Source of the DNA: Shigella phage SP18
Sequence record: GQ981382
Reading direction: 5' to 3' (one strand)
DNA: 64,000 nt
Part shown: positions 13,970 through 17,707 of the stretch, in pieces
Numbering within the stretch: position 1 is the first letter of the stretch
Layout of the letters: every line of letters starts with the position of its first letter
Position numbers and translations under genes: made by a program
Notes under the pieces: model-generated
What the model saw: only the letters and a program-made list of their open reading frames with translations
Database searches by the model: none
What the model was told of the DNA's origin: nothing

Positions 13970-14635
13970 TTATTTTAAAGTGACAAAAGATGAGTTACGA
14001 GTTTCTCGTACTAGAACAGACCCATTACGATTGATGTAATAAATCAAACTGAATAGAGTTTGGTGCGCGGTGGGATGTGGGAAAGCAGTTGGACGTTCTT
14101 TCCAATCTGGAGTCTCGGCAATCCACTGATAAATCCACCATGGAACAGTACAGAATCCAGGGTTCTTACCAATAAGCATTAAATTCGGGCTAAAGTTTTT
14201 TGGCAAATCAAATACAGGTTTTTCAGATTCGATAACCTTAGCAACAGCAGCTTCGAACTTTTCTTCGACAAAAGGAACGTCCTCTTCGACCAAAACAACT
14301 GGTTCTTCGATTTCAACAACTTCAACCTTTGCTTCGGTTGGAGCATCAAATAAGAGCTTAGCTTCTTCTTTAGCTGACTCATCGCCATCAAATTTAGCAC
14401 CTGACAATTCGTCATCGGCATCGATAAGGTCAGTGATGCTCAGTCCCTCATTATCATCAGGCATGGGCATGTCAGCAAATGCTTTAAGCCCTGCTTCCAG
14501 GTCAGCCAACATATTATCAAAGGTTTTTGTTTTCTTAACATCAACACCAAGTGATGCTGCATATTCGGCTAATTTTTCTTTGGCTTCTTTTTTCTCGAGG
14601 ACACGAATTTCCTCAATGTAGTTCTTGTCAATCAT
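13970..14635 (-). CDS. inh: Inh-like inhibitor of prohead protease
   Basis: 221 aa at the T4 inh position adjacent to hoc; acidic central region. Assignment is mostly by synteny. Confidence 0.55.
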   Translation of the reverse strand: MIDKNYIEEIRVLEKKEAKEKLAEYAASLGVDVKKTKTFDNMLADLEAGLKAFADMPMPDDNEGLSITDLIDADDELSGAKFDGDESAKEEAKLLFDAPTEAKVEVVEIEEPVVLVEEDVPFVEEKFEAAVAKVIESEKPVFDLPKNFSPNLMLIGKNPGFCTVPWWIYQWIAETPDWKERPTAFPHPTAHQTLFSLIYYINRNGSVLVRETRNSSFVTLK

Positions 14636-14653
14636 GATGAACCTCGGTTAGTG

Positions 14654-14661
14654 TATAAATA
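14654..14661 (+). promoter_or_regulatory. Late promoter motif TATAAATA upstream of uvsW
   Basis: Exact TATAAATA about 29 nt upstream of the uvsW ATG. Confidence 0.65.
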
Positions 14662-14689
14662 TAGATATATTTATTACCTTGGAATCATC

Positions 14690-16189
14690 ATGGATATTAA
14701 AATCAACTTTCTAAATTTTAGTCACGTGCATGTTGAATGTGAAGATGGAATCTTCTACGAACTCCGTGATTACTTCAGCTTCGAAGCTGAAAACTATCGC
14801 TTCAATCCAAAGTTCAAGCAGGGAGTTTGGGACGGACGAATCCGCCTCCTGGATTACAATCGTAAATTACCATACGGTTTGGTTAATCAAATTAAAAAGT
14901 TCGCTGACCAGTTTGGTTATTCATTCTGGATTGACCCGCAAATCACCGAGAAAGAAGAAATCTCTCGCGAAGAATTCGACAAATGGGTTGAGTCAAAAGA
15001 AATCTATTCAGGCAATACCAAGATAACGCCTCATTGGTATCAATCTGACGCCGTATATGACGGTCTGGTCAACAGAAGAAAGATTCTGAACTTACCTACG
15101 TCTGCAGGTAAAAGCCTCATCCAGGCGCTTCTGGCGCGATATTATCTCGAGAACTATGAAGGCAAGGTGCTTATCCTTGTTCCTACAACCGCGCTTGTTG
15201 ACCAGATGATTAATGACTTTGTTGATTATCGGCTTTTCCCTCGTGAAGCTTGTCTGGGTATTCGTTCCGGGACTAAACGCGATTCTGATGCGATGATTTA
15301 TGTATCGACTTATCAGACGGCTGTAAAACAACCTAAAGAATGGTTTGGCCAGTTTGGCCAGTTTATGAATGACGAATGCCACATGGCTACAGGTAAATCG
15401 ATTTCGACGGTTATCGAAGGCCTTACGAATTGCATGTTTAAATTTGGTCTGTCAGGTTCACTCCGTGATGGCAAAGCCAACCTTATGCAATATATGGGTC
15501 TGTTTGGTGATATCTTTAAACCAGTATCAACATCCAAATTGATGGAAGATGGCCAGGTTACTGACCTTAAAATAAATAGTATTTTCCTTCGTTACCCTGA
15601 TGAATTCACTGTTAAAATGAAAGGTAAAACTTATCAGGATGAAATTAAGGTAATTACAAAAGCTACACGCCGAAATAAATGGGTAACAAATCTTGCTCTC
15701 AAGCTTGCTAAAAAAGATGAAAACGTCTTTTTGATGTTTAAGAATATCGAGCACGGTAAATCGATGTTTGAAATGCTTAAGGAAGCTGGTCATGAGAAAG
15801 TGTATTATGTTTCCGGGGAAGTTGATACCGAAACCCGTAATGCTCTGAAGGTCATGGCAGAGAATGGAAAGGGAATTATTGTTGTAGCTTCATACGGTGT
15901 ATTCTCAACGGGGATTTCCGTTAAAAACCTCCATCATATTATTTTCGCTCACCCGGTCAAGTCAAAGGTAATTGTACTCCAGACAATTGGTCGTGTGCTT
16001 CGAAAACATGAATCCAAATCACAAGCAAACGTTTTTGATATCGTTGATGATATGGGTGTTAAACCTAAATCAGCAAATGCTAAAAAGAAATATGTTCATC
16101 TTAACTTTGCCCTAAAACATGGCCTTGAACGTATACAACGATATGCTGATGAACGTTTTAACTATGTAATTAAACAGGTGGAAATTTGA
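14690..16189 (+). CDS. uvsW: UvsW DNA helicase
   Basis: Matches T4 UvsW (NLPTSAGKS Walker A, MNDECH DEAH-like box, VASYGVFSTGISVKNLHH). Start taken at Met 14690 because the upstream in-frame GTG lies inside the TATAAATA motif. Confidence 0.93.
   Translation: MDIKINFLNFSHVHVECEDGIFYELRDYFSFEAENYRFNPKFKQGVWDGRIRLLDYNRKLPYGLVNQIKKFADQFGYSFWIDPQITEKEEISREEFDKWVESKEIYSGNTKITPHWYQSDAVYDGLVNRRKILNLPTSAGKSLIQALLARYYLENYEGKVLILVPTTALVDQMINDFVDYRLFPREACLGIRSGTKRDSDAMIYVSTYQTAVKQPKEWFGQFGQFMNDECHMATGKSISTVIEGLTNCMFKFGLSGSLRDGKANLMQYMGLFGDIFKPVSTSKLMEDGQVTDLKINSIFLRYPDEFTVKMKGKTYQDEIKVITKATRRNKWVTNLALKLAKKDENVFLMFKNIEHGKSMFEMLKEAGHEKVYYVSGEVDTETRNALKVMAENGKGIIVVASYGVFSTGISVKNLHHIIFAHPVKSKVIVLQTIGRVLRKHESKSQANVFDIVDDMGVKPKSANAKKKYVHLNFALKHGLERIQRYADERFNYVIKQVEI
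16167..16185 (+). repeat. 19-bp direct repeat, left copy (uvsW 3' end)
   Basis: TAATTAAACAGGTGGAAAT, identical to 16859-16877; the two copies bracket the HNH endonuclease gene. Confidence 0.85.
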
Positions 16190-16881
16190 ATTATCAAAAA
16201 ATATATGATGATTTAATTGGGAGTCGAAAGGCTTCCAAACCGATTGGATACACGGAATCTCACCATATCATTCCAGAATGTATGGGTGGACCTGATACAC
16301 AAGAAAACAGAGTCAACCTTACTCCGGAAGAACATTTCGTTGCGCATAAATTATTGGCCAAAATTCATCCTAATCATTACGGTCTTATAAAGGCCGTCAT
16401 TGCTATGGGTATGAGCTCTCGAACACATCAACGACAATTCAATAAATCGTATGGATGGGAGCGTAGACAAATGTCAGTTCTTCAAACTGGTGAAGGCAAT
16501 CCTTTTTATGGTAAACACCATACTGAAGAACATAAAGAATATATGAGCCAATTATTAAAGGGTCGCAAAATAACTTGGGCTGATAAAATATCCGCGACAA
16601 AGAAAGCGAATCCGTATAAATACTCTCAAGCACAATGTCAAGCTATATCTGAAAGAAATAAAGGTGAAGGTAATTGGATGTATGGTAAATCACATACACC
16701 AGAAGCATCAAAGAAAATTTCAGATAAAGCAAAAGAACGTTATAAGGACCCATCCAAAAATCCTGCCGCTAAGAAAGTGGTTTTAAACGGGATTGAATAT
16801 GGTTCGATGAAGCAAGCTTCTGTAGCAACGGGGCTTTCTTTATATAAAATCAGAAATTTAATTAAACAGGTGGAAATATAA
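16186..16881 (+). CDS. HNH homing endonuclease (mob-like), free-standing
   Basis: ESHHIIPECMGGPDTQENRVNLTPEEH HNH core followed by repeated NUMOD-like G-x-x-H-T/S-x-E units; TTG start overlapping the uvsW stop; 19-bp direct repeat at both junctions. Confidence 0.8.
   Translation: MNYQKIYDDLIGSRKASKPIGYTESHHIIPECMGGPDTQENRVNLTPEEHFVAHKLLAKIHPNHYGLIKAVIAMGMSSRTHQRQFNKSYGWERRQMSVLQTGEGNPFYGKHHTEEHKEYMSQLLKGRKITWADKISATKKANPYKYSQAQCQAISERNKGEGNWMYGKSHTPEASKKISDKAKERYKDPSKNPAAKKVVLNGIEYGSMKQASVATGLSLYKIRNLIKQVEI
16859..16877 (+). repeat. 19-bp direct repeat, right copy (HNH gene 3' end)
   Basis: TAATTAAACAGGTGGAAAT, identical to 16167-16185; both encode a C-terminal IKQVEI. Confidence 0.85.
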
Positions 16882-17108
16882 TGAAATCCTTCGAAGAAAT
16901 TATGTACGAAGCATCAATTGAAGGCTTTATGGCTAAGATTGGCTCCTGTCAGACCATGGACGGTCTGAAGGAGTTGGAAGGCTATTATAAGAAACGCAGC
17001 AAAGAAGCTGAACTGAAAGATTCCGATGATATCAGTGTTCGTGACGCTCTTGCCGGTAAACGCGCCGAGCTTGAGGATATGGACGACGACGAAGACGAAG
17101 ATTTCTAA
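16881..17108 (+). CDS. uvsW.1: UvsW.1-like small acidic protein
   Basis: 75 aa with acidic tail (MDDDEDEDF); sits where T4 uvsW.1 follows uvsW, here displaced by the endonuclease insertion. Confidence 0.75.
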   Translation: MKSFEEIMYEASIEGFMAKIGSCQTMDGLKELEGYYKKRSKEAELKDSDDISVRDALAGKRAELEDMDDDEDEDF

Positions 17109-17135
17109 ATAAAAAGGCCCCAACCAAAAGGAAGG
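17105..17135 (-). terminator. Candidate terminator hairpin between uvsW.1 and the uvsY-side genes
   Basis: GCCCC, 12-nt loop, GGGGC, with a T-run on the minus strand. Confidence 0.35.
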
Positions 17136-17166
17136 GGCAAAACCAAAAAATGGTTAACAACACTAG

Positions 17167-17334
17167 CTAAATTAAAAGTTGGGTCTCGTTCAGTTGCTCT
17201 TCTGTATTTTCCGTAACTGGCAAACTCTGAACATAATTATAACAGGCGCCCGGATGCACCGGACCTTGGTCTGTATCCACAACCAATGCAGAATCGATTG
17301 GAGTTTTACAGACAACACAAATCTTATCTGACAT
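17167..17334 (-). CDS. Small Cys-containing protein, 55 aa, not in the ORF track
   Basis: Hand translation MSDKICVVCKTPIDSALVVDTDQGPVHPGACYNYV...; CxxC plus a distal Cys; hairpin terminator downstream. Confidence 0.35.
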   Translation of the reverse strand: MSDKICVVCKTPIDSALVVDTDQGPVHPGACYNYVQSLPVTENTEEQLNETQLLI

Positions 17335-17473
17335 GATTGTCTCCTCAGTTAAACTTACATATCTATTTAGTGCTCTTCATAATAGCAGCACGAGCTTTCA
17401 TCTCATTAACAATTTCAGTTATTCGGTTTGCAGAGATAACCATCTCGTCAAGAATCTTACTAATATTTTTCAT

Positions 17474-17707
17474 TTAATTTTCCTTAAAGTATCTCATACC
17501 GGTATCTATCCCCATATTGTGAGAATAGAACGCATCATCGATGTATCCTGCAAATTTACCTTTAACATAGATAACATCTTCACCACAAGGGTGGTCAGCG
17601 CAGATACGAATATCCGCACGATTCAATTTCCATTCCTTCATCATATACTTAATTTCTTCTTCGAACTCTTCGTCTTGGTTAAACGCATCGTCGATAGAAT
17701 ATCGCAT
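17474..17707 (-). CDS. Hypothetical protein (uvsY.-2-like position)
   Basis: 77-aa ORF directly downstream of uvsY with abutting start/stop; contains a Cys/His cluster (CADHPCGED). Confidence 0.55.
   Translation of the reverse strand: MRYSIDDAFNQDEEFEEEIKYMMKEWKLNRADIRICADHPCGEDVIYVKGKFAGYIDDAFYSHNMGIDTGMRYFKEN

Follow-up and report, generated by a model that had tools for sequence, protein, structure and literature searches.

Bacteriophages of the T4 type are full of free-standing homing endonuclease genes (HEGs), and the element described here is ordinary in kind: a 64,000-nucleotide (nt) stretch of the genome of Shigella phage SP18 (record GQ981382; the whole stretch is called the window below) carries, between the helicase gene uvsW and its neighbour uvsW.1, a predicted free-standing HNH homing endonuclease gene of the Mob type. 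In T-even phages, free-standing endonucleases cleave away from the gene that encodes them, the stretch from the cut to this gene being obligatorily co-converted; polymorphisms between cut and gene can confer resistance, and the genes often overlap upstream open reading frames (ORFs) (PMC2988022). What this locus adds is a homing hotspot common to several genera, unusually clean co-conversion tracts and the duplication of a gene end. An endonuclease gene at the uvsW/uvsW.1 junction was not found in the open-access literature, although absence there is no proof of none, and the site was not found in the table of T4 endonucleases of a 2010 review (PMC2988022).

Among described systems, T4 MobE, an HNH enzyme encoded between nrdA and nrdB, belongs to the same protein family (PHROG 655) and its gene is likewise free-standing inside an operon. 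In both cases the start codon overlaps the upstream stop codon, suggesting translational coupling, and both genes have a 5' coding stem-loop (PMC2988022). The two differ in locus (nrdA/nrdB versus uvsW/uvsW.1) and in the C-terminal DNA-binding region; in addition, the HEG of the window starts with TTG, and the tail of its host gene is duplicated and read as the HEG C-terminus. T4 SegE is also encoded by a free-standing HEG adjoining uvsW, with the uvsW of related phages as its documented target and with flanking co-conversion (PMC2988022). However, SegE is a GIY-YIG rather than an HNH enzyme, and its gene, annotated between inh and uvsW in T4, lies next to the 5' end of uvsW, whereas the HEG of the window lies at the 3' end.

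Mobile ORFs of fungal mitochondria bring a replacement C-terminus for their host gene and leave the native one downstream (Allomyces atp6; Glomus atp6, atp9, cox2 and nad3; PMC3630166). There, as here, an endonuclease ORF lies near the 3' end of the host gene, which uses a diverged inserted end while a native end identical to that of relatives persists. Such C-terminal replacement is seen in Dhakavirus, Tequatrovirus, Angelvirus and the P479-type HEG described below; in the window the two 19-base-pair (bp) tail copies are identical, but the 145 bp upstream form a diverged, HEG-linked tract. The native piece here is only about 19 bp long and is not a dead pseudo-copy, as it both encodes the HEG C-terminus and provides uvsW.1 with its ribosome-binding and coupling context; moreover, an HNH enzyme of a phage stands here in place of LAGLIDADG or GIY-YIG enzymes of a mitochondrion. 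The likeness is functional and is not evidence of common descent. Bonocora et al. are said to have described, in 2011, the T4 mobA/gene 60 locus, in which an HNH Mob endonuclease is accompanied by a translational bypass element splitting a topoisomerase gene. Both loci combine a Mob HNH gene with extra sequence that makes an insertion in a coding region tolerable, but this is a bypass element in a split gene there, and a short duplicated or surrogate tail with no split gene here.

The segment 16186-16881 is very probably a Mob-type HNH/NUMOD3 HEG at the 3' end of uvsW which has spread by homing with co-conversion. The order of the features at the junction is as follows (window positions; aa, amino acids; SD, Shine-Dalgarno sequence).

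14690-16189, + strand: uvsW helicase gene, 499 aa (ATG 14690, TGA 16187-16189; Pfam UvsW_N, E 1e-39, ResIII and Helicase_C)
16167-16185, + strand: direct repeat copy 1, the last UvsW codons (V-IKQVEI), in which AGGTGG is the SD of the HEG, 4 nt before the TTG
16186-16881, + strand: free-standing Mob-like HNH homing endonuclease gene, 231 aa (TTG 16186, TAA 16879-16881)
16859-16877, + strand: direct repeat copy 2, the native uvsW tail read as HEG C-terminus (L-IKQVEI), carrying the uvsW.1 SD and TAATG coupling context
16881-17108, + strand: uvsW.1, 75 aa (ATG 16881; PF11637, E 1.6e-24)

There are exactly two occurrences of the 19-mer TAATTAAACAGGTGGAAAT in the 64-kb window, both on the + strand (16167-16185 and 16859-16877); a third match was not found there even with up to three mismatches, and of 100 shuffles that preserved dinucleotides none gave two or more matches. 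If one mismatch is tolerated, the repeat grows to 21/22 (16164-16185 and 16856-16877). The copies are spaced 692 bp apart and each begins at codon position 2 of its own ORF; being in the same codon phase, they give UvsW (...NYVIKQVEI) and the inserted protein (...RNLIKQVEI) the same end, IKQVEI. A preliminary description of this DNA had reported the repeat and the common ending, and the search of the window and the ORF translations agree with it. The TTG of the HEG (16186-16188) overlaps the uvsW stop as TTGA, and its TAA overlaps the uvsW.1 ATG as TAATG. Since the last 19 bp of uvsW stand on both sides of the insert, the C-terminus of UvsW is kept, the HEG runs in frame into copy 2, and the native ribosome-binding site and coupling context of uvsW.1 are left in place. 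Over the 22 nt preceding the uvsW.1 ATG there is no difference from the empty sites of VR7 and EAWsc9, which bears out the earlier proposal that the downstream copy restores the start context of uvsW.1.

The window belongs to a VR7-like Gaprivervirus, the closest relative being UPEC01 (98.4%). The same HEG with the same perfect 19-bp repeat is present in four database phages, making five HEG-positive Gapriverviruses with the window, while a different, 261-aa HNH gene occupies the same place in two others, P479 and Yersinia phage vB_YenM_P8. In about 20 distinct Gapriverviruses of the database the locus is 692-693 bp shorter, and the presence of the gene at this one fixed site is thus polymorphic among close relatives. 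All six empty loci fetched (VR7, EAWsc9, TH57, VR20, VR25 and PSD2001) contain a single repeat copy in the junction ...GTAATTAAACAGGTGGAAATATAATGAA..., where uvsW directly abuts uvsW.1 (GGAAATATAATG) and the uvsW TAA overlaps the uvsW.1 ATG. This is the arrangement that had been predicted for endonuclease-free relatives, and no HEG-less locus with both repeat copies was seen among the six. The claim of base-pair-level insertion boundaries stands only in part: the net insertion is 692 bp relative to empty relatives, but with a replacement tail identical to the native one, the window allows 20 equivalent placements of the boundary within the repeat. In pattern scans of IMG/VR the occupied junction gave no match, and the empty junction gave one, the IMG copy of VR20.

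The assignment of the inserted protein is based on several matches. Pfam detects two NUMOD3 repeats (68 bits versus a cut-off of 20.4), PHROG 655, 'homing endonuclease', is matched with E 6.9e-57, and a tblastn comparison with T4 mobE gave 33.9% identity over 86% of the query (E 4e-19). The parts of the protein are located as follows.

16249-16350, + strand: HNH (beta-beta-alpha-metal) motif, residues 22-55 (H26 H27 ... N41 ... H50 ... H54)
16489-16704, + strand: two NUMOD3 DNA-binding repeats (16489-16530 and 16663-16704), from Pfam and also found as direct repeat D1

Residues 22-55 (Y-T-E-S-H-H-I-I-P...G-G...N-R-V-x-L-T-P-E-E-H-x-x-A-H) can be aligned with the EcoKMcrA and IscB HNH motifs. 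Across 42 aligned homologues H27, N41, H50 and H54 are invariant, and H26 is kept in at least 90%. The AlphaFold model is a confident one, with a predicted local distance difference test (pLDDT) score of 86.7; among the weak matches of whole-chain fold searches, those that make sense are HNH domains and the DNA-binding domain of I-TevI; the C-terminal beta-beta-helix-helix part weakly resembles the latter (1i3j, probability 0.98 but E 0.22). The ratio of nonsynonymous to synonymous divergence (dN/dS) of the HEG is 0.06-0.08 at a dS of about 1.2-1.5, indicating strong purifying selection; an ungapped cross-genus dN/dS of uvsW was excluded because of an indel. The ORF fills the entire 692-bp insert between two separate genes, as a free-standing gene does. 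The earlier identification as an HNH homing endonuclease is retained, with a sequence-based placement among the Mob-like HNH/NUMOD3 enzymes.

The first in-frame ATG of the HEG is codon 33, within the HNH motif. The TTG start, which the preliminary description had placed over the uvsW stop, is supported by orthologues in which an ATG or GTG occupies the very same position and a conserved N-Y-x-K-I-Y (MNYxKIY) comes next. GenBank already labels several of these ORFs 'homing endonuclease'. The records of UPEC01 and pEC-M719-6WT.2 start the coding sequence (CDS) at Met33 (883-1482 of each locus), losing the catalytic His pair, and the UPEC01 record, MW233709, names the product 'group I intron endonuclease'. 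The present analysis corrects both kinds of mis-annotation, the CDS calls truncated to Met33 and the 'group I intron endonuclease' label.

The signs of co-conversion lie in uvsW itself, where two features precede the HEG.

15980-16003, + strand: helicase motif VI codons (QTIGRVLR), invariant at the protein level across genera
16021-16166, + strand: HEG-linked haplotype (co-conversion) tract at the 3' end of uvsW, common to the five HEG-positive Gapriverviruses and the empty VR7

The tract, whose left edge lies just 3' of the motif VI codons, differs at 30 sites from the otherwise near-identical VR20 background. Sharply bounded divergent tracts of 150-350 bp directly upstream of the HEG, the pattern expected of co-conversion, were found in five genera and on different backgrounds. 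Mismatches between pairs of related loci, in bins counted outward from the junction into uvsW, are distributed as follows.

Window versus VR20 (empty), 100-bp bins: 16, 16, 1, 0, 6, 4, 2, 1
DK-13 versus VR20, 100-bp bins: 19, 16, 2, 4, 3, 1, 0, 1
TH40 versus EAWsc9, 100-bp bins: 9, 11, 3, 4, 1, 2, 0, 1
TH40 (HEG 1) versus YenM_P8 (HEG 2), 100-bp bins: 15, 7, 10, 0, 0, 0, 0, 0; right flank 0
VR7 versus VR25, 100-bp bins: left 21, 13, 1, 3, 2, 2, 1, 2; right 0-1
AREG1 versus RB3 (Tequatrovirus), 50-bp bins: 12, 9, 21, 3, 0, 0, ...
Roth78 versus JD18 (Jiaodavirus), 50-bp bins: 8, 16, 6, 2, 0, ...
UP19 versus JS98 (Dhakavirus), 50-bp bins: 13, 10, 11, 9, 4, 1, 0, ...
AsFcp_2 versus PX29 (Angelvirus, aligned with MAFFT), 50-bp bins: 16, 10, 9, then 0 in the next nine bins

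Synonymous divergence is 0.35-0.66 within the tract versus 0.07-0.21 further upstream. The five HEG-positive Gapriverviruses have a common tract but the distal uvsW of at least two backgrounds, VR20-like and EAWsc9-like, which indicates that the tract and the HEG moved between backgrounds. Between the Dhakaviruses UP19 and ESCO10 the HEG has a dS of 0.17 versus 0.84 in the adjacent uvsW, and by this measure it is much younger than its neighbour. The cassette had been delimited as approximately 16186-16877; the unit that travels with the HEG also takes about 165 bp of upstream uvsW. TH40 and YenM_P8 are identical except for the last ~240 bp of uvsW and the HEG itself.

VR7 is empty, yet it carries the HEG-linked tract (about 622-767 of the VR7 locus) in a VR25-like background. 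It would be either a short-tract repair product, a precise deletion via the 19-bp repeat or a relative of the original host, and it may represent a resistant empty allele. The motif VI codon region is, by its position at the tract edge, a candidate cleavage or recognition site; no consistent HEG-associated substitutions in the motif VI codons were found as an immunity signature. The idea that the tract is one foreign segment common to all genera was rejected, as the tracts are genus-specific, with 63-76% identity between genera. An exception is UP19, in which the last ~175 bp of uvsW are 83% identical to the Gaprivervirus tract versus 78% to Dhakavirus JS98, and 73-77% identical to the tracts of other HEG-positive Dhakaviruses; this hints at inter-genus exchange.

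HEG orthologues have 49-97% identity, below which the values fall abruptly to 41% or less, and they were found exclusively between uvsW and uvsW.1. They occur in Dhakavirus (UP19, PSD2002 and ESCO10), Tequatrovirus (UFV-AREG1 and HY03; junction occupied in 49 of 749 Tequatrovirus-type records) and Jiaodavirus (Roth78; 13 of 189 Jiaodavirus-type records), and all four metagenomic contigs examined show the order uvsW, HEG, uvsW.1. The second HNH family (261-263 aa), similar to the first only over the N-terminal ~64 residues, is present in Gaprivervirus and Angelvirus at exactly the same junction and with the same layout of surrogate and native tails; in the latter genus it was found in the Aeromonas phage AsFcp_2, the one occupied record out of six, PX29 being an empty relative. 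In coordinates of each locus sequence these genes lie at 787-1572 in P479, 787-1572 in YenM_P8 and 1801-2592 in AsFcp_2. The 3' end of uvsW thus appears as a recurrent homing hotspot, occupied by two HNH families in at least five named genera.

The copies of the uvsW tail on the two sides of the HEG compare as follows.

Dhakavirus: downstream (HEG 3' end) ATGAAACAGGTGGATTTATGA, native tail MKQVDL; upstream (uvsW end) ATGAAAGAGGTCCAAATTTGA, surrogate MKEVQI
Tequatrovirus: downstream (HEG 3' end) AAAACAGTTAATTTATAA, native tail KTVNL; upstream (uvsW end) ATGAAAGAGGTTAAACTTTGA, surrogate MKEVKL
Gaprivervirus, P479-type HEG: downstream (HEG 3' end) ATTAAACAGGTGGAAATATAA, native IKQVEI; upstream (uvsW end) GTGAAACATGTGGAACTATGA, surrogate VKHVEL
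Angelvirus: downstream, native tail KEVMIENT; upstream, variant tail KEIMLE

In all four the downstream copy corresponds base for base to the tail native to the genus, whereas the upstream copy deviates from it. The Jiaodavirus upstream tail carries four changes relative to the native tail, each of them synonymous. Beyond the Gaprivervirus HEG lineage, exact matches between the two tails reach 6-11 bp at most, and the surrogate tails of Dhakavirus and Tequatrovirus share ATGAAAGAGGT, unlike either native tail. The conserved body of the HEG ends with ...GLSxYK(L/I)R(K/N/Q)(L/M), after which the tails differ by lineage (IKQVEI, MKQVDL, RKTVNL, LKEVKL, RNL, KVTK, LRIKNG and others).

Since in most lineages the downstream tail is native and the upstream one a variant, the more fitting position for the insertion is within the final codons of uvsW, some 19 bp short of the stop and at the 5' edge of the tail. 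The HEG does sit between uvsW and uvsW.1, as first described, but the insertion itself is more appropriately assigned to uvsW. Likewise, a perfect repeat brackets the HEG in the Gaprivervirus lineage but is not a general hallmark of the insertion, perfect 19-bp identity being specific, among the sequences compared, to the five genomes with the first HEG. Among the metagenomic contigs, L025 has a second near-perfect duplicate, TAAAAGAGGTTAAATT[G/A]TGA (20/21), while no duplicate is obvious in L027 and L028, which provide uvsW.1 with a ribosome-binding site of their own. Contig L029 contains the duplicated DNA, GTTGAACT[A/G]TGAA, but its HEG reads it in a different frame, which argues that the duplication is a DNA-level feature and not the result of selection on the HEG C-terminus. 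In the same contig (3140-3200) the HEG ends 14 nt inside uvsW.1 with the tail RLNCENY, and uvsW.1 apparently starts with GTG.

These comparisons suggest the following mechanism. The cassette would bring a replacement uvsW tail, which also contains the SD of the HEG, and a start codon overlapping the new stop, whereas the HEG ORF would run into the native tail and borrow from it the stop, the SD (AGGTGG) and the TAATG that couples uvsW.1. In a mixed infection the enzyme would cut HEG-less uvsW within its last ~190 bp, from the motif VI codons to the insertion point, and double-strand-break repair of the T4 type would then copy the HEG together with the intervening donor uvsW segment, leaving the sharply bounded 150-350-bp divergent tract upstream of the HEG. 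Expression of the HEG is probably low, given its weak TTG start, 4-nt SD spacing and a hairpin over the start codon. This model predicts a cut in the ~190 bp bounded by the motif VI codons and the insertion point, and it also predicts which natural alleles would resist cutting.

More tentatively, and as a whole this seems to us doubtful, the element could be more than a passive HEG, namely a self-contained 'gene-end replacement' cassette adapted to a target within a coding region. It would carry its own resistant version of the last 50-80 uvsW codons, reuse the native 19-bp tail as HEG C-terminus and uvsW.1 coupling signal, and tune its expression by two hairpins, the conserved one that sequesters the start and the GNRA hairpin in its 5' codons; the Gaprivervirus repeat would make the insertion precisely reversible, and VR7 would be an excision product or the outcome of short-tract repair, immune via its resistant tract. 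If this is true, a cycle of invasion, immunity and loss would be observable at a single locus in five named phage genera.

Several observations weigh against a HEG spread by homing with co-conversion. The HNH domain of the 231-aa protein is sub-threshold in Pfam (PF01844, 13.8 bits versus a gathering cut-off of 21.4, E 0.065); proteins of the second HEG family from this junction score above the cut-off (22.9 and 23.8 bits). Between genera the HEG is about as diverged as its flanks, with 80% nt identity between Gaprivervirus and Dhakavirus versus 80% and 78% in the flanks, and 70% between Gaprivervirus and Tequatrovirus versus 74% and 71%. Such divergence would fit long residence and is by itself no sign of recent mobility; the HEG has probably been a long resident of the junction in each genus, and the genus-specific 'native' downstream tails may simply reflect this. 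Co-conversion on the uvsW.1 side is not visible, that flank being too conserved to inform. Finally, double-strand-break homing normally creates no target duplications, and the 19-bp tail duplication is not accounted for by it; the source of the duplication could be an illegitimate insertion in an ancestral phage, or homogenisation at a later time that reached as far as a heterology boundary.

Secondary homogenisation would mean that an ancestral diverged surrogate tail, as in Dhakavirus, Tequatrovirus, Angelvirus and the P479-type, was overwritten by native sequence in Gaprivervirus, which could happen in a homing or recombination event via heteroduplex formation or gene conversion up to the heterology; the 19-bp repeat would then not be the mark left by the first insertion. 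We take this possibility seriously while leaning somewhat against it: the restriction of the perfect repeat to five Gaprivervirus genomes, the ATGAAAGAGGT common to two surrogate tails and the departure of the upstream copy from the native junction exactly at the HEG start (GGAAAT followed by TTGA versus GGAAAT followed by ATAA) all agree with it, but the 20/21 duplicate of L025 suggests that a perfect or near-perfect duplication could instead be the primitive state, which decays. A different account makes the HEG an old vertical resident, the 'empty' genomes deletions between the tail copies, and the patchy distribution a result of repeated loss rather than active homing. Inter-genus identity of the HEG that tracks uvsW and uvsW.1 would be expected on this account, a perfect 19-bp direct repeat could support precise deletion regenerating the observed empty junction, and VR7 is empty but has the HEG-linked upstream haplotype. 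It is nevertheless unlikely, as the same ~145-bp tract accompanies the HEG in at least two Gaprivervirus backgrounds, the dS of the Dhakavirus HEG is far below that of the neighbouring uvsW, the strong purifying selection would be difficult to account for if the nuclease were inactive, and the repeats found outside Gaprivervirus have diverged too far to permit precise deletion readily.

A direct repeat of host sequence flanking an inserted segment might also recall a transposon or insertion-sequence-like element with a target-site duplication made by a transposase. This is highly improbable, because the only ORF encodes an HNH/NUMOD3 endonuclease with no transposase or integrase domain (Pfam and PHROG), there are no terminal inverted repeats at the cassette ends, the element occurs at one locus only in all eight lineages examined, and the repeat is degenerate or absent in orthologous insertions. 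That the ORF is a group I intron-encoded endonuclease with the repeat marking exon boundaries, as the product name in MW233709 implies, is hardly credible at all. No Rfam intron family matched 14400-17600 even at E <= 1, relatives with an empty site have uvsW and uvsW.1 as separate genes with nothing that needs splicing, the ORF filling the whole insert leaves no room for an intron core, and the annotation itself begins at Met33 and removes the HH of the HNH motif. A Mob-type HEG spread by homing with co-conversion remains the preferred reading. The locus then provides a base-resolved example of a HEG placed inside the end of an essential-pathway operon with neither neighbour damaged, and a hotspot at the 3' end of uvsW would account for local mosaicism and raised synonymous divergence in this gene, which is a frequent phylogenetic marker.

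Predicted expression signals and RNA structures of the region are as follows.

14654-14661, + strand: T4-type late promoter motif TATAAATA, 29 nt upstream of the uvsW ATG (motif match)
16186-16216, + strand: predicted 11-bp RNA hairpin over the HEG TTG and first codons (121-nt fold, z = -3.05)
16217-16238, + strand: GAAA-tetraloop (GNRA-type) hairpin in HEG codons 11-18, conserved in 12 of 13 orthologues
16615-16622, + strand: late-promoter-like TATAAATA inside the HEG, at the same ORF position in 5/5 Gaprivervirus and 3/3 Dhakavirus orthologues
17117-17138, no strand assigned: GC-rich hairpin between the convergent uvsW.1 and uvsY.-2, its fold fitting a bidirectional terminator

Overlapping stop and start codons, TTGA upstream and TAATG downstream, make the HEG part of the late uvsW-uvsW.1 operon, and scans of 14500-17400 for sigma-70 promoters and intrinsic terminators gave background levels, with none of the HEG's own at its ends. 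By analogy with T4 biology, the motif at 14654 is the likely source of a uvsW-HEG-uvsW.1 transcript. It has 22 matches in the window versus 4.8 expected from shuffles, mostly on the + strand and between 1000 and 16700, an enrichment consistent with the late-gene region of a T4-type genome. The copy at 16615, absent from the Tequatrovirus, Jiaodavirus and second-family HEGs, could drive or restore transcription of uvsW.1, though its conservation is statistically weak since only two synonymous sites are involved.

The hairpin at 16186-16216 is predicted by folding to sequester the HEG start. Other T4 HEGs have weak, coupled or structured initiation regions, which the TTG start, 4-nt SD spacing and start hairpin of the window HEG resemble (PMC2988022). 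The stems of the hairpin in codons 11-18 vary in a compensatory manner (GGGAGUC/GGCUUCC, AGAAGCC/GGCUUCU, GAGAGGC/GCCUCUC, GAGCCC/GGGCUC and GAGGCCU/AGGCCUC) and are kept where the peptide differs; upon synonymous recoding of these codons, a fraction of 0.0005-0.16 of the recodings per sequence fold as stably. A GNRA-type hairpin is found at the same position in UP19 (L006), L011, L007, L025, L027 and L028. The structure is reminiscent of the internal 5' terminators of mobE and segF; lacking a poly(U) tract, it is not a canonical terminator, a difference from MobE.

As regards uvsW.1, the RefSeq record of T4, NC_000866, annotates uvsW as one 1764-nt CDS (locus 178-1941) with a sequence-discrepancy note, whereas in the genomes of relatives and in the literature it is divided into uvsW and uvsW.1. 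The suggestion that this split is the scar of an old HEG insertion is unsupported: a helicase-fused UvsW.1 was found in none of 68 homologues (all 43-96 aa), in a search that reaches fairly close relatives only. A conserved bidirectional terminator is known downstream of uvsW.1 (PMC1524935). Just past the terminator hairpin of the window, the A-run at 17144-17149 has six residues in the window and PSD2001, five in UPEC01 and VR20 and four in VR7, and this length polymorphism explains the 1-bp discrepancy between locus lengths.

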